In this document: positions 699-21,259 of the stretch, piece after piece
How positions within the stretch are numbered: position 1 is the first letter of the stretch
Layout of the letters: the number at the start of each line of letters is the position of its first letter
Source of the DNA: a virus
Virus record (IMG/VR): IMGVR_UViG_3300045988_103300
Coordinates: 1-21,684 of that record
DNA length: 21,684 nt
Direction: 5' to 3' (one strand)
Made by a program: the position numbers and the translations under genes
Notes under the pieces: generated by a model
What the model was told of the DNA's origin: nothing
Seen by the model: the letters and a program-made list of their open reading frames with translations, nothing else
Databases searched by the model: none

Positions 699-720
699 TT
701 TTATTTAAAATATATTATTT

Positions 721-1047
721 TTAATCCAAGTATTTATAAACTATATCTATTAGTTTGGTAATCATATCTTTAATTAGAATCATACAATCCTTTATAACTG
801 GAGTCATAAATGCAATTAAAGCAATATATGCAATCATTAAGAAGCTTAATTGTCCAGTTACTAAGATATATAGTAAACTTGCCCACCAAGTGCAGCATAG
901 AGAACATCCAAATAAAGGTATAGACCAATCAGTATATTTAACTCCAGGATATAGTTTACTTCATACCCATCTATTTGCCTTGTCCATAGCTCCAGATAAA
1001 TCAATACAGAAGACAAGAATAATAGCTATAAAAAGTATGCTTAACAT
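721..1047 (-). CDS. Integral membrane protein, DUF1360-like, with in-frame TGA (108 aa)
   Basis: Not on the ORF track because of TGA at 961-963. ATG 1045-1047, TAA 721-723. Hand translation: MLSILFIAIILVFCIDLSGAMDKANRWV-W-SKLYPGVKYTDWSIPLFGCSLCCTWWASLLYILVTGQLSFLMIAYIALIAFMTPV... It has several hydrophobic helices and a PLFGC..C..W motif resembling DUF1360 membrane proteins. The plus-strand ORF 755..1069 is its antisense shadow. Confidence 0.6.
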
Positions 1048-1286
1048 AACCTCTCTCTTATTTGTTTAATAAATCTCTGAATAGTCGTATGACTAATTCC
1101 CAGAATCTTCCCAACTTCTCTATAACTTCGATATTCAGCATATAAGATAATTATAGTCTTATCTGCTCTATTTAATGCCTCTCATTTTGGATAAATTGAA
1201 AGTAATCTATCATCCATCTCTGTAAAGGTATCTATTTCAAAGTTATACTCAATTAATAAATCATCAATATTAATCTTCTGCTTCAT
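1041..1286 (-). CDS. Sigma-70 region-4-like HTH protein, with in-frame TGA (81 aa)
   Basis: Not on the ORF track because of TGA at 1182-1184. ATG 1284-1286, TAA 1041-1043. Hand translation: MKQKINIDDLLIEYNFEIDTFTEMDDRLLSIYPK-W-EALNRADKTIIILYAEYRSYREVGKILGISHTTIQRFIKQIRERLC. The segment L..ADKTIIILYAEYRSYREVGKILGISHTTIQRFI fits the ECF/sigma-70 region 4 (LuxR-like HTH) pattern. Confidence 0.55.
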
Positions 1287-1578
1287 TTAACCAATCCTCT
1301 AAATTATCCGTTTGTTGTTCTAATGGCTCTTTAAATATCTCATAGTACTTTTTATATTGGTAGTAGTATCTACTATTCTTTGAAAACCAATTATTCTTAA
1401 ATACTCTTGTAATCCAATACTTCAGCTCATTCTTACTATCTAATGACTGAAGCTTGGAATTAGATGTTTCCAGAAGTGCAATGCAGACCATTTGTGTGCA
1501 ATCGTCATCTGCACCAAATTTTTCTTTTAACTCCATAATAAACGGATAGTATTTCTCTATTATTTCATTGTTATTCAT
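1270..1578 (-). CDS. Sigma-70 region-2-like protein (102 aa)
   Basis: ATG 1576-1578, TAA 1270-1272. The segment DDDCTQMVCIALLE...ELKYWITRVFKNNWFSKNSR resembles ECF sigma region 2 (acidic-Q-x-hydrophobic ... W-hydrophobic-x-x-hydrophobic-x-x-N-x-x-x-x-x-x-R). It lies directly upstream of, and overlaps by 17 nt, the region-4-like ORF. Confidence 0.45.
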   Translation of the reverse strand: MNNNEIIEKYYPFIMELKEKFGADDDCTQMVCIALLETSNSKLQSLDSKNELKYWITRVFKNNWFSKNSRYYYQYKKYYEIFKEPLEQQTDNLEDWLNEAED

Positions 1579-2916: not shown

Positions 2917-2962
2917 AATTTATAAAGTTTAATTGTTAATATTATGTCTTACTTTCATAGTA

Positions 2963-2994
2963 CAAATATACAACAAAAAATTCATATTTCCAAA
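2963..2994 (-). promoter_or_regulatory. Leftward Bacteroidota-type promoter candidate
   Basis: On the minus strand, TTTG (complement of 2991-2994), then 20 nt, then TATATTTG (complement of 2963-2970). This matches the Bacteroides consensus TTTG-N19-21-TAnnTTTG. It lies about 45 nt upstream of ATG 2916. Confidence 0.55.
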
Positions 2995-3052
2995 TATTTT
3001 ATGCATTTTTTCAAAAAAAATATTACTATTTGTATTTTTTAGTGCTAAAAAT

Positions 3053-3083
3053 TTTGTAGATTAAAAAATTATTCTTATATTTG
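3053..3083 (+). promoter_or_regulatory. Rightward Bacteroidota-type promoter candidate 1
   Basis: TTTG 3053-3056, 19 nt spacer, TATATTTG 3076-3083. Confidence 0.45.
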
Positions 3084-3132
3084 TGGTGTGATAATAAAAA
3101 TACAATTTTAAATAAAAATAATGCTTAAATTA

Positions 3133-3164
3133 TTTGGAGATTGAGAAAAATTGTTGTATATTTG
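3133..3164 (+). promoter_or_regulatory. Rightward Bacteroidota-type promoter candidate 2
   Basis: TTTG 3133-3136, 20 nt spacer, TATATTTG 3157-3164. The -7 region is identical over 20 nt to that of the leftward promoter. Confidence 0.5.
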
Positions 3165-3238
3165 TACTATCAAACTAAAACTACTTCCATATTGAAAATT
3201 GAGCTGGGATTAATTTCCAGTTTAATTTTAACCTTTAC

Positions 3239-3289
3239 TGTAACTTTTTTACTAATATTTTGTAGTAAGATAAATAAAAAAAGTTACAT
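3239..3289 (+). promoter_or_regulatory. Conserved 51-nt element, copy A (TGTAAC-N39-GTTACA)
   Basis: Sequence: tgtaacttttttactaatattttgtagtaagataaataaaaaaagttacat. It ends 33 nt upstream of the helicase-like ATG. 42 of 51 positions are identical, without gaps, to copy B at 21200-21250. The terminal arms are inverted repeats. Confidence 0.6.
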
Positions 3290-3322
3290 ATAAAATTTAT
3301 TAACTTATTAAAAATTACTATT

Positions 3323-5041
3323 ATGAAAACTTATTTAAATAATTTAATCAATGAATTACCTACTAACTGCTTATTTGACAAAGGTAAAGTAGGATGTGGT
3401 GGAACTTCAATGGCTTTAGAGTGTGATAAGCCTTATGTTATATGTGTTCCATTTGTAAGCTTAGTTGAGAATAAACTTGCTCAATATCCTAATGAAAGAC
3501 GTAAAGAGCCTATTTTTGGAGTTTATCAAGGTATTACTAAGACAGACATTGAAGCTTATGTATCTTCAGTTAAATGCCCTAAAATCATTGTTACTTATAA
3601 TTCTCTTTATAAAGTAATAGAAGCGGTAAATCCTAAAGATTATAGCCTATTAATTGATGAATATCATATACTATTTAATCAATATAGTCTTAGAAGAGAC
3701 GCAATTAAAGATGTATTAAAGACATATAGCTTATTTAAAGAATATACATTTATGACTGCTACTCCCTTAGAAGATGAATTTGTTTTAGATGAATTGTCTA
3801 AACTGCCATTAGTAAGACAAGAATGGGATGATGTTATCGAGACTAAAGTTCAGACTGTCAAATGCAAGAATGTAGAAGCTTCCACAATTAAGCTTATAAA
3901 TGGATTTTTAAGTGGGAATGTTGAAGGTAATGCTTATATATTTGTTAACTCTGTTGACTTTATAAAGAATCTTATTTTAAAGGCTAAACTTACAGCAGAT
4001 AACACAAGAGTAGTATATTCTAAGAATAATAGAACTAAACTGCCAATTCAGAATTCTTCAGTAAATGATGAACCTAAGAAGATTAATTTGTTGACTTCTA
4101 CTGTATTTGAAGGTTCTGATATTTATGATGAAAATGGAAGAATTATTGTAGTTAGTGATTCCTCTAAAGCTCAGACTCTTTTAGATATATCTACTTCAAT
4201 TCAACAGATTGCTGGTAGAATTAGAAATAGTAAATATTTAAATTGGATTACTCATCTTTATTCAGCCACAAGATATGCAGAGATAGATTATGATACATTT
4301 AAAAATAATACATTAAAGAATATTGAAGAAACAAAGATTGCAGTTGAATCATATAATCAGCTTCCAGAAGTAGCTCGTAAGAAGATTACAGACTTTACAA
4401 GTGACACATATATTCAAATTAATGAGGATTATACCTTTGAATTTGACCCAAATATGGCTAAAGTAGATATATTCAATTTTAAGGTTGCAAGAGGTTTATA
4501 CTCTGTAAGAGTTAATCTTACTAATGAATATCTAAAGAATGGCTTTATAAAGGTTGCTGAATGTGAAGATAAATCTATTAAGATAGACCTTGAAGCTCCT
4601 AGTAAGTCATTTCAGGAGCTTATTAAAGATGTAAGAGCTGAATGGGAAACTAAATTTAAAGTTGGAACTCCTATATTAAATGAAGCTCTAATTAAATATC
4701 CTTGGTTAAATGATGCAATTAATAAACTGGGATTTGAAAGAATGGCAACTTTGGGTTATTGCATTAAAGATATTAAAGAGGAGCTTGTTAAAATATCAGA
4801 TAAAAATATGCCAAATAAGGTTGCCAAATTACTTACAAGAGATATTCAGAATGGTATGTTCTACAATTTAGCTTTATTAAAGAATAAGATTGCTGATGTA
4901 TATAAGACTTTAGGTATAAAGAAAACTGCAAAGGCAACAGATATTGAACACTATTTTGAAGTTAGAAAATCAACTAAAACTGAAAAGGATGTTAGAAGCA
5001 AAGGATACATTATTATTAGACCAAGATTCATATTTAAATAG
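3323..5041 (+). CDS. SF2 (DExH-type) helicase-like ATPase (572 aa)
   Basis: ATG 3323, TAG 5039-5041. It has a P-loop-like GKVGCGGTS near the N-terminus, a Walker B/DExH box (LLIDEYH) and a motif III-like FMTATP. All 4 Trp codons are TGG. It is the only long plus-strand gene. Confidence 0.6.
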   Translation: MKTYLNNLINELPTNCLFDKGKVGCGGTSMALECDKPYVICVPFVSLVENKLAQYPNERRKEPIFGVYQGITKTDIEAYVSSVKCPKIIVTYNSLYKVIEAVNPKDYSLLIDEYHILFNQYSLRRDAIKDVLKTYSLFKEYTFMTATPLEDEFVLDELSKLPLVRQEWDDVIETKVQTVKCKNVEASTIKLINGFLSGNVEGNAYIFVNSVDFIKNLILKAKLTADNTRVVYSKNNRTKLPIQNSSVNDEPKKINLLTSTVFEGSDIYDENGRIIVVSDSSKAQTLLDISTSIQQIAGRIRNSKYLNWITHLYSATRYAEIDYDTFKNNTLKNIEETKIAVESYNQLPEVARKKITDFTSDTYIQINEDYTFEFDPNMAKVDIFNFKVARGLYSVRVNLTNEYLKNGFIKVAECEDKSIKIDLEAPSKSFQELIKDVRAEWETKFKVGTPILNEALIKYPWLNDAINKLGFERMATLGYCIKDIKEELVKISDKNMPNKVAKLLTRDIQNGMFYNLALLKNKIADVYKTLGIKKTAKATDIEHYFEVRKSTKTEKDVRSKGYIIIRPRFIFK

Positions 5042-5483: not shown

Positions 5484-5517
5484 AAAAGGAGGGTTATTTG
5501 CCCTCCTTTTCTTTTTT
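5484..5517. terminator. Bidirectional rho-independent terminator between convergent units
   Basis: Perfect 10-bp stem: aaaaggaggg (5484-5493), loop ttatttg, ccctcctttt (5501-5510). It is followed by a T-run on the plus strand and preceded by an A-run (a T-run on the minus strand). It sits between the plus-strand stop at 5480 and the minus-strand stop at 5519. Confidence 0.85.
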
Positions 5518-5518
5518 A

Positions 5519-6088
5519 TTAAACATATCTTCACTTGAATCCTTTAGCTGTATTTGCTAATCCACCACATACTCTACTAATAGCTCCTCTATCAGTTCCT
5601 ACAGATTTGGCTGCTTCTGTGCAACTTTCATACTCTTGAATAAAATTACCATCTAAATCATACTGAGCTACTTTACGACATCTTTGTTTGTTATGAGCAT
5701 CTACTTTATCTCTTCAAGATTCTGGGCAATTATGTTTCTTTCCCTTATTAGAATTAGACAGTTTCTTCTTTCATTCAGAATTAAATTTGACTCCGTAATT
5801 GCCTCCTTCTCCTCCAGGTTTCAAATTTAAACACATAGGATCAGTGTCCCATTTATCTCCAATTAGTTTGTATTCTAATTTAGATAATTCATCTGCATTA
5901 GTGCAAGTTGCCAAAATAATCTTTTGGTATGCATTAGGGAATCTTTTGTAATAATTAGTAATAATCCTTCCTGATCCTTTATATGGATCTTTATTTATGT
6001 CTTTACCTCTATAAATCCTTTTCCCAATATAATACTTGCCTCTTAATGTACCTGCAGTTAAAATTATTTTATAACAATAGTAAAACAT
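5519..6088 (-). CDS. GIY-YIG homing endonuclease with three in-frame TGAs (189 aa)
   Basis: ORF-track 5771..6088 (YCYKI...GKYYIGK...YKGSG GIY-YIG core) stops at TGA 5771-5773. Read-through gives ...KFNSE-W-KKKLSNSNKGKKHNCPES-W-RDKVDAHNKQRCRKVAQYDLDGNFIQEYESCTEAAKSVGTDRGAISRVCGGLANTAKGFK-W-RYV, ending TAA 5519-5521. The extension has NUMOD3-like basic repeats and the classic ..GF.W.Y tail. TGAs are at 5771, 5714 and 5531. Confidence 0.85.
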
Positions 6089-7786: not shown

Positions 7787-8476
7787 TTACTTACTCTTTT
7801 TATTGTTACTTGAAGGAAAATCATAAGCTCTTTGAAGAGGCCCCTCTCCAGGTTTAATGCTCCATCCTTTACCTCTTGCTCCACCAAGCCAAATATTGCA
7901 AGATGAGCTAGAGTAAAGATTGGGAAACATATCCTTTAATGGCTTATATGTATAAAGCTCAGGGAATTCGTTATAATATGTAATTATAAAGTCCTGTAAA
8001 CGAGTCTTAAAGAAATCCGCCTTATCTCTATAATACTTCTTAATTTGATTTACTTGACTTGCTTCAGCAGCAATATCTTTCTCATCATCAGTTCTCATAA
8101 CTCCAAAATTACCAAGCTTATAAGATATAGGAATTACTATCTCGCTAAGTACTTGATAAAGTAAATAAGGCTGAACATAATAGTCTAATAGCTCTTTATA
8201 TCTGTAGTTATCAGAATCATCAATAGAATCACTTGGAAGTGGCTCAGGAGGTTCTATTGGATGAACTGGAGTATGAGGATCAATCCAATTAATACATTTC
8301 TTTTGTAATGCTTCCAATAGCTTAGTACCAATAGTTGACTGAAGTTCTACATCTTGGGCACTTGTGATGGCTGCTTGTAAATATTTACCCGATATATTGT
8401 TATCTAATGTAGAATTTGACTTTATATAGTCTTCTGAAATAAGCAGTACATTTCTATAGTTAAGTTGTTCCATCAT
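7787..8476 (-). CDS. Possible head-tail connector (gp6-like) protein (229 aa)
   Basis: The N-terminal pattern ISEDYIKSNSTLDNNISGKYLQAAITSAQDVELQSTIGTKLLEAL resembles the start of gp6-like head-tail connector/DNA-packaging proteins. It is located after the portal. Weak assignment. Confidence 0.35.
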   Translation of the reverse strand: MMEQLNYRNVLLISEDYIKSNSTLDNNISGKYLQAAITSAQDVELQSTIGTKLLEALQKKCINWIDPHTPVHPIEPPEPLPSDSIDDSDNYRYKELLDYYVQPYLLYQVLSEIVIPISYKLGNFGVMRTDDEKDIAAEASQVNQIKKYYRDKADFFKTRLQDFIITYYNEFPELYTYKPLKDMFPNLYSSSSCNIWLGGARGKGWSIKPGEGPLQRAYDFPSSNNKKSK

Positions 8477-9068
8477 AAATAAATTTATTGTTTTTATAAG
8501 GTCTATTTTCTTTTAAAGCTAAATATAATCCAGAACGTTCTCCATTAACTGATTTAACAGCTTCTTTCATTGAATTATATCTTGCAATAAAATTCCCATT
8601 CATATCAAATCTTAATATAGGCTTAACTCTAGTAATTCGTCCTTTGGAAGCATTTCCAATTTTAATAAGTGTTTCCAAAGTATAGATTCCTTTCTTTCCT
8701 TTATTCCAGGGTGTTTTACCTTTTTTAGAATTTGACATTTTTGCTCTACTCTCATTAGAAAAAGAATACCCGTATGTACCTTCTCCTCCTGATGTTATAT
8801 TGTAACCATTTTCAGGAGTATTTGTTTTATATTTATGTATCAATATCCTTTCTAATGTCTTAGCACAAGCTTCTGGTAAATTATCTTTAATTATGATATG
8901 TTCAAATCCATCTCAGCTATATTTTTGTATCGCTTTATAAAAGTAAGCTTGAGTAGAGTATCCATATCCATTTTTTCACCTAGCTTGCACACTTTGTCCA
9001 GTAATGCCAAAATATAGCTTATTGTTATACTTATTTATATGGCAATAAACAGTATAATTATTCAACAT
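8460..9068 (-). CDS. GIY-YIG homing endonuclease with two in-frame TGAs (202 aa)
   Basis: ORF-track 8460..8843 begins on TTG and lacks the catalytic domain. Extending upstream through TGAs at 8913-8915 and 8976-8978 to ATG 9066-9068 gives MLNNYTVYCHINKYNNKLYFGITGQSVQAR-W-KNGYGYSTQAYFYKAIQKYS-W-DGFEHIIIKDNLPEACAKTLERILIHKYKT...GYNITSGGEG. This is a complete GIY-YIG domain followed by NUMOD3-like basic repeats. TAA 8460-8462. Confidence 0.85.
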
Positions 9069-10149
9069 TTTGTTTGCTATCTTCTTGTCCATTTGGAGTT
9101 AAGCTAAAAGGAGTTATAGTTATTGAACCTTTCATTCCAAATATCTTATCAAATGTATCTACTATTTCGACCTGAATTGGTCTAACTACTGTACGATTAT
9201 AAAGTTTAAAAGCTTCATTAAATTCTTGTTCGTTGAATCCACTTGAGTAGTTAAGGCCAAAAAGTACACTATTAGCTCTAAATGCGCAGAATATCTGTTC
9301 TCTTGTCCTATCAGATAAAGCACTATATTTCTCATCAAAATCATCAGAGTCTAAACGCTCAATAGTAGTCTTATTTGTTTCATCATCATTATATGAAATA
9401 AGAACTCTACCAGCATTTTGAAATCCTGAGAATTTCTCATTAATATTCATCTCAATCTCTTCTTTAACTTCGTCTGTAGGCTGTCCATTATTAAAGTTAA
9501 TGATAAGATTGCCCATAAATCCGTTATGAAGAGAATTTAGATGAAACTCATTAATATTCTTCTCAGTTTCGCAAGATAGGATAGCTGCACCATAAACAGG
9601 GACTGGATATACTTTTCTTGTTATATAGCCCTTATTATAAACAACACTTGTAGGATTATCATCTGAATAATTAAATTTTGGATATTTGATAGCTTTAATA
9701 GACCAAGCAGACCAATCATCGGCATAATAGAATACTTCATTCTTTTCATCAGAACGAATCTTCATAAAGTCAAGATGATATATTTCTGAAACTCTACCTA
9801 CCATATCTCTAATTATTTGTAAAGCATATCCTCCAAAAATCATCTTATCTTTAGATACTTTACGCATAATATCCATAATAGTCTCACCTTTCTTATTTAC
9901 AGTTACTTCAAATCCTGGTGCATTACATACAACATCATTACCAACAATAAAGTCAGCAGTCCCATTAATGATAGATTGAAGAGTAGCTACATTTAAGTAT
10001 AAATCCCATAGATATAATGGATAGCGATTATCTTCACCCCAAGAAATCCAATCAGAACCCCTTTTTCTCGATTCTACAGGAAGTACTAAATTTGACACTA
10101 CAACAGGATCAATTGCACTTAATTGTACTTTTGTTTTATTTTCGCTCAT
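9058..10149 (-). CDS. Portal protein (363 aa)
   Basis: ORF-track 9058..10206 starts on TTG; the likely start is ATG 10147-10149 (MSENKTKVQ...). Portal-family features: ..WISWGEDNRYPLYLWDLYLNVATLQSIINGTADFIVG.., ..MIFGGYALQII.., ..FLGLNYSSGFNEQEF.. All 5 Trp codons are TGG. Confidence 0.75.
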   Translation of the reverse strand: MSENKTKVQLSAIDPVVVSNLVLPVESRKRGSDWISWGEDNRYPLYLWDLYLNVATLQSIINGTADFIVGNDVVCNAPGFEVTVNKKGETIMDIMRKVSKDKMIFGGYALQIIRDMVGRVSEIYHLDFMKIRSDEKNEVFYYADDWSAWSIKAIKYPKFNYSDDNPTSVVYNKGYITRKVYPVPVYGAAILSCETEKNINEFHLNSLHNGFMGNLIINFNNGQPTDEVKEEIEMNINEKFSGFQNAGRVLISYNDDETNKTTIERLDSDDFDEKYSALSDRTREQIFCAFRANSVLFGLNYSSGFNEQEFNEAFKLYNRTVVRPIQVEIVDTFDKIFGMKGSITITPFSLTPNGQEDSKQNVE

Positions 10150-10528: not shown

Positions 10529-10600
10529 ATTTTGCAATAGTTTTACATTAATTTACATATCTTTTTCTTAAAATATAAAAGACTATGCATATGTATTAAT

Positions 10601-10629
10601 ATAAAAATAGGGAGAATAGAATCTCCCTA
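10601..10629 (-). terminator. Rho-independent terminator after the 323-aa LRR gene
   Basis: 8-bp stem: tagggaga (10608-10615), loop atagaa, tctcccta (10622-10629). On the minus strand it is followed by TTTTTAT (complement of 10601-10607). Confidence 0.75.
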
Positions 10630-11608: not shown

Positions 11609-12130
11609 TTAGATATATTTAAATTTTACCCCTTTATAAGTGTCTGTTCTTCCTTTAAGACAATCTATAACTCTACTATGAGTATACCCATCTATTGATG
11701 TTTCAATTGCATTTTTATATGTTTTAACTAGTAAATCATTAATAAATAGCCCTACAGGTTTACTAATTTTATCAATACATCTATTTATTCTAGTTCCATA
11801 TGTATTATTATACTTTGCATCACATCATTCTAAATTTTCTACCCTATTATCTGTCTTATTTTCATTTATATGGTTAACATATGGTAGATTGTCAGGATTT
11901 GGAATAAATGCTTCTGCTACTAGTCTGTGAACTTTAATAGCTTTAGGTTTATCTAAGCCAGATACTAGAATTACATAATTATAGCCATATTTATCTATAT
12001 GCTGTTTTAGCTTTTTATGTATTTGTTTTCTGGTTCTTCCAATAGAATCTTTAAAAGTCAATGGGTTACTATATACATCTCCTGTAGAAGATACACTATA
12101 GTTAGGATAATTTGTTAATACTCTATTCAT
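11609..12130 (-). CDS. HNH homing endonuclease, in-frame TGA in the HNH core (173 aa)
   Basis: Likely start ATG 12128-12130 ([26 protein letters not shown]4-like). ORF-track 11825..12208 stops at TGA 11825-11827. Read-through gives ...[92 protein letters not shown] 11609-11611. NLEW is the conserved HNH_3 motif. Confidence 0.85.
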
Positions 12131-12737
12131 TTGGAATTTCACCATTAATTGTATCAAGAGTAGTTGAGATATTACCAATCTGAGCTTGAATTGCTGAGAT
12201 TTCTCCATCTAACTCTGTCATCTTTGTATTATATGCATCTGTAGTTACATAGCTTGATAATTCACTTTTATCTGCTTTAAGTGCAACTTCATCTTTAGTA
12301 GCTAATCCAGATACATCAGGAATCTTATTCTCTACAGCTGTAAGCTCTTCTTTAGTAGCAAAATCCTCAGTACTTGGAATATCTGCCTTGAGAGCATAGT
12401 TAGAAAGATCAATAGATAGATGTAAATCTTCACCCTCTCTATTAAATGACATAGGAGAGTTTACTTGAAATACTTCCATCTTAGATGTTTCTAATTCAGT
12501 AATATCATTCTTAATTGGCTCTAACTTAGGTTCAAGTATAACATCCAACTGAGAATTAATTTGCTCATCAATTATTTCAACAGCCTTATCTTCGGAAATG
12601 TAATTACCTTTAGGTTGAAATCTGGCATCTGCTTCAATCTTTGTATAAGAACCAACTGGAAGCTGAGCTGTCTCAATACCACATTTCTTACTAACATAGA
12701 AGGTCTGAGTATTCTTAGTATTCTTTAATATAATCAT
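12123..12737 (-). CDS. Tail-fibre-like protein, short paralogue (204 aa)
   Basis: ORF-track start 12764 is TTG; the first ATG is 12735-12737. TAG 12123-12125. It shares low-complexity fibre segments (..[48 protein letters not shown]..) with the central part of the 741-aa fibre. No Trp. Confidence 0.55.
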
Positions 12738-17774: not shown

Positions 17775-17809
17775 TTTCTATAAAATATAAATAGTTAATT
17801 ATCTGTCCA

Positions 17810-17848
17810 TAAACAAAATAAGGGGCAAGTAAATTAATACTCGCCCCT
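17810..17848 (-). terminator. Rho-independent terminator after the tube-like gene
   Basis: Stem: aggggcaagta (17821-17831), loop aattaa, tactcgcccct (17838-17848), with one mismatch. On the minus strand it is followed by TTATTTTGTTT (complement of 17810-17820). Confidence 0.7.
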
Positions 17849-19348: not shown

Positions 19349-19960
19349 TTAACCAATAAAGTTTTTAAGCTTTTTATCAATAACAGGATTACCAGTCATT
19401 ATTGAAGCTTTGCCTTCTATCTGTTCCTCAGCTGAAAATGCAGCACTCATTTTGCTCATCTTTTCAACCGTCTTTTCTGTAGCTTCAGATTTACCCTCTA
19501 ATTCAGCTACTTTCTTAACAAGCTTATCAACAATGTCATAAAGCTCATTAATTTCGCGATGAATTGCATCAATTGCATCAGTTACAGTTTCTTTATCTCC
19601 ATCAGTAGCTACTTCAGGATCAACTGGCTCTTCAGCAGTTTCTACCTTGCGTTTTCCACAAGCAGCATCAACTTCTGCTTTAGCTGCTTCTTCTGGATCA
19701 ACTTCAGCTTTTGGATCAGTAATGGACTCTACTTTACCGTCTTTAACAACAATAGTTTTGCCATCTTCGGTAACATACTCACCATCAGCAGCAGGTGCAT
19801 ATTCTCCAGTATCAGTATCCATTGTATATACACTCATACCTGCCCTTAGATCCTCATCCTCACTACCATCGTAAGTTAGAACTCCAGCACTAGTCTTAAC
19901 ATCGTTAAATTTTGCTAAGAGTTTACTAAGTTCGATTCTCAGTTTAGTTAATTTGTTCAT
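19349..19960 (-). CDS. Scaffolding protein (203 aa)
   Basis: A highly acidic, Ala/Glu/Lys-rich helical protein (..INELYDIVDKLVKKVAELEGKSEATEKTVEKMSKM..) directly upstream of the capsid gene. No Trp. Confidence 0.6.
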   Translation of the reverse strand: MNKLTKLRIELSKLLAKFNDVKTSAGVLTYDGSEDEDLRAGMSVYTMDTDTGEYAPAADGEYVTEDGKTIVVKDGKVESITDPKAEVDPEEAAKAEVDAACGKRKVETAEEPVDPEVATDGDKETVTDAIDAIHREINELYDIVDKLVKKVAELEGKSEATEKTVEKMSKMSAAFSAEEQIEGKASIMTGNPVIDKKLKNFIG

Positions 19961-20555
19961 ACTTAAATTTAAAATTTTTATGATAGTTTTGTTTATTTTT
20001 GCAACATTTTATAATAGCACTATGATCAAAATTTCCGTTTCTTTCAGCGTCCATAGCAGATTTCCAAGTGCATATATAAGTATCATTAATATCTGTCATA
20101 ATTATACGTTTACTTACTTTTTCTTTCTGCTGTTCAGTTTGTTTAGTTCCTAATCTACATTCTCTTAACTTTAATTTTGTTTCATCCTTTAATACTCTTC
20201 CAGACTGTTTTAAAGACATTTTGTGTTTAGATTCTTCACTGTGTTTAAATCCAGTATTAGAACCTCCACCTTCATTTAAATTATAACCATTATTTAATGT
20301 ATCAAATAACTGAATATATTTAATTTCTGCATTATTTAGTTGTCTTTTCAATAATTCTGTAGAAGAACAACAAAAGATTTGAAGAATTTCCCATTTAAAG
20401 TTATTGAATTCATATTTCCTAATCGCTCTATGAAAATATGTAAGATTAGAACTGTATTTATGTTCATTCTTTCTTCTCAAGAAATTATTTGTTTGTCCTA
20501 CATATTTATTGCCATTTATAAGATTTGTTGCTAGATATATAACTCCACTATACAT
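19944..20555 (-). CDS. GIY-YIG homing endonuclease (203 aa), no TGA
   Basis: GVIYLATNLINGNKYVGQT...RRKNEH...AIRKYEFNNFKWEIL...E..YI.....NGYNLNEGG is a complete GIY-YIG domain. It is followed by NUMOD3-like repeats (HSEESKHKMS, LKDETKLKLRE, QTEQQKEKVSK) and a C-terminal DNA-binding tail. It is inserted between the protease and scaffold genes, overlapping the scaffold start by 17 nt. Confidence 0.85.
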   Translation of the reverse strand: MYSGVIYLATNLINGNKYVGQTNNFLRRKNEHKYSSNLTYFHRAIRKYEFNNFKWEILQIFCCSSTELLKRQLNNAEIKYIQLFDTLNNGYNLNEGGGSNTGFKHSEESKHKMSLKQSGRVLKDETKLKLRECRLGTKQTEQQKEKVSKRIIMTDINDTYICTWKSAMDAERNGNFDHSAIIKCCKNKQNYHKNFKFKYEQIN

Positions 20556-21147: not shown

Positions 21148-21199
21148 TTTTATTAATATATAGCACTTTATAAATTTGTAATATTTTTAGAATATCTAA

Positions 21200-21250
21200 T
21201 GTAACCTTTTTACTCATATTTTGTAGTTAATAAGAATAAAAAAGTTACAT
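21200..21250 (+). promoter_or_regulatory. Conserved 51-nt element, copy B (ATGTAAC-N37-GTTACAT)
   Basis: Sequence: tgtaacctttttactcatattttgtagttaataagaataaaaaagttacat. 42/51 positions are identical to copy A (3239-3289), same length and same orientation. It lies in the 112-nt gap between two minus-strand virion genes. Confidence 0.6.
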
Positions 21251-21259
21251 TAAACATTT

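Follow-up and report, generated by a model that had tools for sequence, protein, structure and literature searches.

The question raised by this locus is whether a phage can encode a sigma factor as two separate proteins. The virus record IMGVR_UViG_3300045988_103300 of IMG/VR, analyzed here over positions 1 to 21,684 (the window, 21,684 nucleotides in full), carries two overlapping open reading frames (ORFs) on its minus strand, referred to as A and B. The initial annotation likened A to region 2 and B to region 4 of the extracytoplasmic function (ECF) sigma factors and offered three explanations for the arrangement: a sigma factor split into two subunits, a +1 frameshift that fuses the two products, and a sequencing or assembly indel that has broken a single gene. 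Our analysis favors the first of these. We put at roughly 70% the probability that A and B jointly function as one ECF-type (group 4-like) sigma factor of two subunits, a proposal drawn from sequence comparison, in which we infer both the association of A with B and their binding to RNA polymerase.

ORF A (1270..1578, minus strand) begins with an ATG at position 1578 and ends with a TAA at 1270-1272. Its 102 amino acids (aa) comprise a putative sigma-2-like subunit, equivalent to regions 2.1-2.4, and an acidic C-terminal tail. ORF B (1041..1286, minus strand; ATG at 1286-1284, TAA at 1041) encodes 81 aa, in which a linker-like N-terminal segment of about 35 aa precedes a putative sigma-4-like subunit with a helix-turn-helix (HTH). 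B starts before A has ended, and the resulting minus-strand overlap (1270..1286) is 17 nucleotides (nt) long (ATGAAGCAGAAGATTAA); relative to the frame of A, that of B is +1. Recomputation of the ORFs and inspection of the sequence reproduced the coordinates, stop codon, frame, and overlap that had been annotated at first, and the last codons of A, GAT TAA, confirm that this ORF ends in a genuine TAA rather than in a TGA. A Shine-Dalgarno-like GAGGA is located 8 nt 5′ of the B start codon; it was not used as evidence, as other lineages do not have it and most genes here have no Shine-Dalgarno sequence.

The full length of B depends on the genetic code. Under translation table 11, B halts after 34 codons at a TGA (1182..1286), and its 81-aa frame is open only with this TGA (codon 35, window 1182-1184) read as tryptophan (Trp). 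The phage uses genetic code 4, in which TGA specifies Trp, as is evident from exchanges of TGA and TGG at conserved Trp positions, from the lack of any gene ending in TGA (0 of 33 window genes), and from the 16 in-frame TGA codons, next to 59 TGG codons, in the window. The Trp site IYPK-W-L of B has TGA in the window and TGG in relatives, and the sites ELKY-W-I and ED-W-LNE of A have TGG in the window and TGA in relatives. The TGA recoding that was implicit in the initial annotation is right on these grounds. In-frame TGA codons are present in early and late genes alike. The window covers approximately two-thirds of a phage genome of ∼31 kb, in which nearly all genes lie on the minus strand. 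Neither the window nor 11 related loci, a set that appears to span most of this genome, yielded a tRNA gene, suggesting that a phage suppressor tRNA is not the cause of the TGA reading.

The resemblance of A and B to sigma factors was assessed with TIGR02937, a curated NCBIfam model of ECF-type sigma-70 factors with 165 positions and a whole-protein cut-off of 42.9 bits. Residues 4-95 of A match model positions 4-105, the sigma-2 half (E = 3.4e-5, 23.6 bits), and residues 36-80 of B match positions 116-161, the sigma-4 half (E = 4.7e-6, 26.3 bits). The two ORFs therefore cover complementary, non-overlapping halves of the same model. Joined in silico, A and B gave one alignment over positions 4-161 of the 165, with a score of 47.3 bits that exceeds the cut-off (E = 1.7e-12). 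The assignment of A to ECF region 2 and of B to region 4, for which profile searches had been named as a possible refutation, is supported, the sigma similarity of both halves being greater than chance would give. In Pfam, B matches HTH_50 (E = 1.9e-8) and Sigma70_r4_2 (E = 1.3e-5, 25.2 bits against a cut-off of 25.7), and it scores 21.8 bits against a cut-off of 24.1 for Sigma70_r4. Most B homologues carry a precomputed PF08281 match.

Family-level comparisons extend this resemblance. Alignment of the A family with Escherichia coli RpoE using hhalign was collinear and in register (P = 0.004), with the DDxxQ motif of A aligned to DVVQE and WIxRVxxN aligned to WLYRIAVN. Across 121 diverse members of the A family, the residues D26, Q29, and N62 are retained in 90% or more of the sequences, and a family-specific motif, SKTSRYYYxYKK, sits after the region 2.4 equivalent. 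A search of 1.84 billion representative proteins with an A-family profile recovered 442 relatives, most of them about 100 aa in length; approximately 21 of the best 149 are 156-245 aa. All 20 of the long relatives that were aligned possess an A-like N-terminal domain followed by a B-like HTH C-terminal domain, and the C terminus of one of these single-chain proteins (P0043) matches B of the window (BLASTP, 8e-12). Two others align with TIGR02937 from end to end and score above its cut-off (P0161, 43.4 bits; P0172, 44.1 bits), and six further single-chain proteins score 26-39 bits on this model. Similarly, PHROG 1740, "RNA polymerase sigma factor," matches 7 of the 20 single-chain proteins at an E value of ≤0.001 (best, 3e-12), and the matches that were inspected span nearly the whole protein. 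The single-chain family is also collinear with E. coli RpoE over both domains in hhalign (P = 0.008).

A was also compared at the level of predicted structure. The AlphaFold2 model built from a deep alignment has a predicted local distance difference test (pLDDT) score of 90.7 and a predicted template modeling (pTM) score of 0.74, with five helices over residues 1-83 followed by the acidic tail at lower confidence. The top matches of A in a Foldseek search of BFVD, a library of predicted viral structures, are phage proteins of 160-232 aa (query template modeling score [TMq], 0.6-0.7; probability, 1.0; E, 0.014-0.1), and TMq values over the top 13 matches range from 0.52 to 0.71. Three matches bear the library names "RNA polymerase sigma-70 region 2," "RpoE … sigma24 homolog," and "Sigma-70 family RNA polymerase sigma factor." Based on these matches to ECF-sized phage proteins, A is predicted to correspond to the N-terminal domain of ECF-like sigma factors from a divergent branch that is specific to phages.

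Several results weigh against a sigma assignment. Alone, A and B each score under the TIGR02937 cut-off of 42.9 bits. The Pfam scan of A returned no Sigma70_r2 match and no match at all, and the Pfam scan of ten single-chain homologues found no Sigma70 domains, Sigma70_r2 included. The HTH of B also fits the generic families HTH_50, HTH_23, and NUMOD1. Hidden Markov model (HMM) searches of PDB sequences gave no significant sigma match with a narrow A profile (A2; best, E = 1.1) and zero sigma matches with a broad one (A4). Lastly, no sigma factor was among the PDB matches of two A models in Foldseek (best E, 2.7), and for this reason the canonical sigma-2 fold is not demonstrated for the modeled protein.

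Other searches were uninformative as well. The PHROGs scan of A yielded nothing useful, the HMM search of PDB sequences with a single-chain profile (A3) found no significant sigma-2 match, and the searches with all three profiles (A2, A3, and A4) gave just weak sigma-4/HTH matches. No relatives of the region, of A, or of the proteins P0161 and P0171 were found by blastn/tblastn among 50,697 GenBank phage records, in which only the HNH gene was matched.

The lack of a Pfam region 2 match and of a PDB fold match for A, together with the best score of B being that of the generic HTH_50, would fit a different explanation, in which the pair is not a sigma factor. B would then be an ordinary HTH activator or repressor that works with the host sigma-A holoenzyme, and A would be either a helical protein with an accessory role or a factor like gp55 that has the sigma-2 part only and needs no B, both with a remote ECF ancestry and a changed function. 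We consider this unlikely, although far from negligible. It is opposed by the complementary placement of A and B on one sigma model, on which they jointly exceed a curated cut-off, and by the single-chain homologues with both halves, which imply that the two parts work as a unit. The near-invariance of D26, Q29, and N62 and the alignment of the A motifs with those of RpoE argue against it as well.

Comparison across related phages addresses whether A and B are one gene or two. Among the close homologues of A, 28 of 29 are 100-104 aa, down to 47% identity, and the one outside this range bears an N-terminal endonuclease fragment. Nearly all of the 108 close homologues of B fall within 81-88 aa; a few entries are shorter, at 47-58 aa. 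This pair of 100-104 aa and 81-88 aa was found in well over 100 assemblies that are independent of one another, with many different samples and sources represented (ENA, Logan, JGI, and NCBI), and a single B sequence accounts for 873 indexed blocks of the assembly collection, on contigs that are mostly 20-50 kb. The 17-nt overlap is identical in the related loci L004-L008, and in two of them (L004 and L005) the A frame passes through a TGA codon and reaches the same TAA. In some close relatives (L001-L003), an HNH homing endonuclease gene occupies a 446-nt stretch between A and B; A retains its stop and B retains its ATG there, and their relative frame differs from that of the overlapping lineages. 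Five distant lineages (L014, L015/L016, L017, L019, and L020), ∼25-40% identical, also encode an A-like protein of 100-110 aa followed by an overlapping B-like HTH protein of 90-109 aa, with overlaps of 26, 8, 50, 11, and 11 nt, whose sequences are unrelated. A and B co-occur as neighbors in every lineage examined.

These comparisons bear directly on the two alternatives in which a single protein is made. An indel introduced by sequencing or assembly could have split a single sigma gene in the window, and single-chain homologues do occur in other phage lineages. The uniform lengths of the A and B homologues, the recurrence of the same two-gene structure in many independent assemblies and in distant lineages, and the HNH gene between A and B exclude such an artifact, to which we assign practically no weight.

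The second alternative is a programmed +1 ribosomal frameshift in the overlap, by which A and B would be fused into a sigma factor of ∼180 aa, perhaps alongside free A. Such a fusion would match the single-chain homologues (156-190 aa) in size, the concatenated A and B pass the ECF model, and B is shifted by +1 from A in each of the six lineages with an overlap; these overlaps (17, 26, 8, 50, 11, and 11 nt) are all of the 3n+2 class. Overlaps of 3n+2 are the usual class of same-strand gene overlaps longer than 4 nt, so the +1 bias of B needs no special explanation. No slippery motif is shared across the A/B overlaps of the six lineages; the 17-nt overlap of the window contains none, and no slippery codon precedes the TAA of A. 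B also retains its ATG in every lineage, and in L001-L003 the two genes are intact on either side of the 446-nt stretch and in a different relative frame. The lack of a common motif and the HNH gene that separates A and B make a programmed frameshift very unlikely.

We conclude that A and B are almost certainly two separately translated genes. The comparison with orthologues, which the initial annotation had recommended, revealed the split pair in relatives and single-chain forms in distant homologues. Of the three explanations offered there, the comparative data select the two-subunit split, refute the assembly indel, and leave the +1 frameshift very little room.

We hypothesize that the two-subunit sigma factor would act in the following way. 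Host sigma-A would transcribe the early operon that contains A and B from a host-type promoter, and the 17-nt overlap probably couples the translation of the two genes. A would supply the sigma-2 function, binding the beta-prime clamp helices via its conserved D26/Q29 helix and reading or melting a -10-like element. B would supply the sigma-4 function, binding the beta flap and reading a -35-like element by its HTH. The break between them would fall in the acidic sigma-2/sigma-4 linker. Assembled on core RNA polymerase, A and B would redirect host RNA polymerase to middle or late phage promoters, for which sites of the pattern AC-N15-TATATWTTA before the packaging and morphogenesis blocks are the best candidates. 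We infer both the translational coupling and the choice of promoters that the pair would read.

The operon that includes A and B (2916→5, minus strand) is gap-free and encodes, in order, proteins of 59 aa, 79 aa, and 145 aa, an HNH endonuclease, A, B, and a membrane protein. It is headed by a candidate early promoter of the Bacteroidota sigma-A type, TTTG-N20-TATATTTG (2963..2994, minus strand), and a divergent partner of the same pattern (3133-3164, plus strand) faces a plus-strand gene for a 572-aa protein. The pattern TTTG-N20-TAnnTTTG, which we take to be the Bacteroidota sigma-A promoter consensus, has exactly two matches in the window (0.19 expected), and these form the divergent pair in the intergenic region 2917-3322. 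Both are perfect motifs with a common 20-nt core (TTGTTGTATATTTGTACTAT), and the pair is retained in L001-L004 and L006-L012.

With regard to the host, the divergent pair points to a member of the Bacteroidota, and the scarcity of Shine-Dalgarno sequences fits such a host; code 4 and the lack of a suppressor tRNA sit oddly with it. A profile search of genome contigs with a narrow A alignment, intended as a clue to a host or prophage, found no A relatives. Two very long contigs carry the ∼31-kb phage, L010 (an ENA scaffold of 198 kb) and one listed for P0223 (193 kb), and these may represent concatemers or chimeric scaffolds, or else a copy that is integrated or linked to the host; they could reveal what the host is.

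Four candidate phage promoters were identified on the minus strand of the window. Three have the form AC-N15-TATATTTTA. The first (706..731) lies directly after the A, B, and membrane protein genes and 7 nt 5′ of the ATG of a 110-aa gene that heads the packaging block. The second (10569..10594) is downstream of a terminator hairpin and upstream of a 130-aa gene and the portal block. The third (17781..17806) is likewise downstream of a terminator hairpin and lies 6 nt 5′ of the ATG of a 500-aa gene. The fourth candidate, AC-N15-TATATATTA (21154..21179), is 6 nt 5′ of the ATG of a 196-aa gene. All four copies are on the sense strand, within scarce intergenic gaps and just 5′ of late gene blocks, and the hairpins (17810-17845 and 10600-10625) are immediately upstream of the two sites concerned. 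The pattern was derived from three sites and the remaining one (706..731) was found with it, at 0.21 matches expected in the whole window. The sites are kept at the same places in L001-L004 and L006-L012, and in relatives the motif recurs ahead of one more late gene and of a T5orf172-type gene.

The spacing from AC to TATAT resembles the geometry from -35 AAC to -10 in ECF promoters, and we regard AC-N15-TATATWTTA as a candidate cognate promoter of A and B. The 11-mer TTTATATTTTA alone was not enriched in a search that allowed one mismatch, so only the bipartite pattern and its positional conservation are informative. Two considerations count against a role as the promoter of a phage sigma factor: the motif was partly defined after the sites were looked at, and its distance from the ATG is only 6-7 nt at most sites, so that it may instead signal translation initiation or something else. 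In addition, its -10-like part TATATTTTA resembles the host-type -7 element TATATTTG, so host sigma-A together with an activator could serve these sites, as expected if A and B were not a sigma factor.

The initial annotation had suggested a different motif, a 51-nt element, as one that a phage sigma factor could read. This element, TGTAAC(T/C)TTTTT…AAAAAAGTTACA, forms a hairpin whose loop is conserved, and is found at 3239-3288 and 21200-21249 (within repeat D1, 3209-3298 and 21170-21259). Its two copies have the same plus-strand orientation, and their neighboring genes lie on opposite strands. The hairpin folds on either strand (z-score, -2.5 to -8.8), and a variant in relatives has altered stem bases (TGTCAG…CTTGACA) and is located ahead of a terminator. 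On the basis of position and orientation, the repeat was rejected as a promoter, and AC-N15-TATATWTTA is the better candidate. The gene blocks of the plus and minus strands converge on a bidirectional GC-rich terminator (5484-5510).

These phages have many homing endonuclease genes of the free-standing kind (HNH/NUMOD and GIY-YIG), which differ in presence and position from one close relative to the next. In the window they are found at 1571-2062, 5519-6088, 8460-9092, 11609-12208, and 19944-20555, and the one in L001-L003 is at 3263-3778. The window has an HNH gene directly upstream of A. In L006 and L008, an HNH gene is located just after B, and the C terminus of B is altered there (…ARCISNIRNKICGRIC). 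A 108-aa membrane protein (721-1047, minus strand) with a conserved CSLC…WW motif follows A and B in the family of the window. The same CSLC-motif protein also follows the A/B-like pair in the distant lineages L015-L017, with a terminase as well in L017. The 108-aa protein may be holin-like or a regulatory partner, for example an anti-sigma-like one.

Sigma factors are nearly always single polypeptides, and their sigma-2/sigma-4 linker threads through RNA polymerase. To our knowledge, natural cases of two-piece sigma factors are few and comprise SigO-RsoA, T4 gp55/gp33, and SPO1 gp33/gp34. In the Bacillus phage SPO1, two small proteins, gp33 and gp34, are both needed to direct host core RNA polymerase to late promoters. 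As in the arrangement proposed for A and B, two small phage polypeptides are involved. SPO1 gp34 is itself a full sigma-like protein, and gp33 is auxiliary, so there is no clean sigma-2/sigma-4 split.

The closest functional analogue of A and B appears to be SigO-RsoA (YvrI-YvrHa) of Bacillus subtilis. One source describes sigma-2 and sigma-4 functions on two polypeptides that act together on core RNA polymerase (PMC7826278, citing MacLellan et al. 2009 and Xue et al. 2016), and the domain assignment is given differently elsewhere (sigma-2, sigma-3; sigma-4) (PMC10141391). Both pairs consist of small subunits with functions of sigma-2 and those of sigma-4 on separate proteins, and A and B have the corresponding arrangement of sigma-2-like and sigma-4-like functions on separate, adjacent, overlapping genes. 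SigO-RsoA is cellular and stress regulated, whereas A and B are phage-borne. Unlike SigO-RsoA, A and B would be an ECF-like protein that is cleanly divided within its sigma-2/sigma-4 linker and of which single-chain homologues persist. Neither SigO nor RsoA was among the matches of any search, and no direct comparison with A and B was made.

The pair gp55/gp33 of phage T4 has also been described as a split sigma factor (PMC12867686; bioRxiv 10.1101/2024.09.12.612765). As in the proposal for A and B, two phage-encoded proteins take the place of the host sigma factor at late genes, and T4 late promoters have a strong AT-rich -10-like element, as do the candidate promoters here. The differences are that T4 gp33 binds the beta flap and does not read DNA, whereas B has a typical sigma-4 HTH; that T4 needs the sliding clamp gp45 as an activator, whereas no clamp gene was seen in the window; and that the candidate promoters of A and B are bipartite, unlike T4 late promoters. 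No search found similarity of A or B to gp55 or gp33.

Relative to the single-chain ECF sigma factors (TIGR02937 and PHROG 1740), the sum of A and B is collinear with the whole model, from position 4 to position 161 of 165. ECF factors have both domains on one polypeptide, whereas A and B are two genes, A with its own TAA and B with its own ATG, and, unlike standard ECF factors, their family is too divergent for Pfam Sigma70_r2. Because the pair passes the ECF sequence test only as a sum and does not form one polypeptide, we class it as a two-subunit variant of the ECF-like kind and not as a standard member. No published description of a split factor in this phage family was found, within an incomplete coverage of the literature. 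As judged from sequence, the new element is a putative phage-borne, widely conserved, and cleanly split ECF-like sigma factor that has single-chain relatives and a plausible class of promoters.

A cut in the linker that is conserved over many phage lineages, beside single-chain relatives, provides a natural comparison series. Such a series bears on the contribution of the linker to initiation and promoter escape, on the assembly of two free domains on the core enzyme, and on whether splitting brings freedom of regulation, such as independent dosage of the two parts, or tolerance of homing endonuclease insertion between the halves. Orthogonal split sigma parts would also be of interest for synthetic circuits. 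Pfam has no match for the A family or for the single-chain relatives tested, and the A homologues are named in their sources only as "hypothetical protein," so current annotation largely misses A-type genes. Recognizing the A and B genes and the candidate promoter motif would therefore help to read the transcription program of very abundant, uncultured code-4 gut phages. More broadly, the large unannotated phage clade of A-type proteins (∼100 aa, in hundreds of 50%-identity clusters), with HTH partners of ∼80-110 aa, could consist of heterodimeric ECF-like sigma factors, evolved from or ancestral to the single-chain forms, and in this abundant code-4 gut phage family the pair would read AC-N15-TATATWTTA for the switch from early (host-sigma) to late transcription, a proposition for which we see even odds. 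If it is true, split sigma factors would be a common phage strategy that extends beyond one Bacillus operon and T4.

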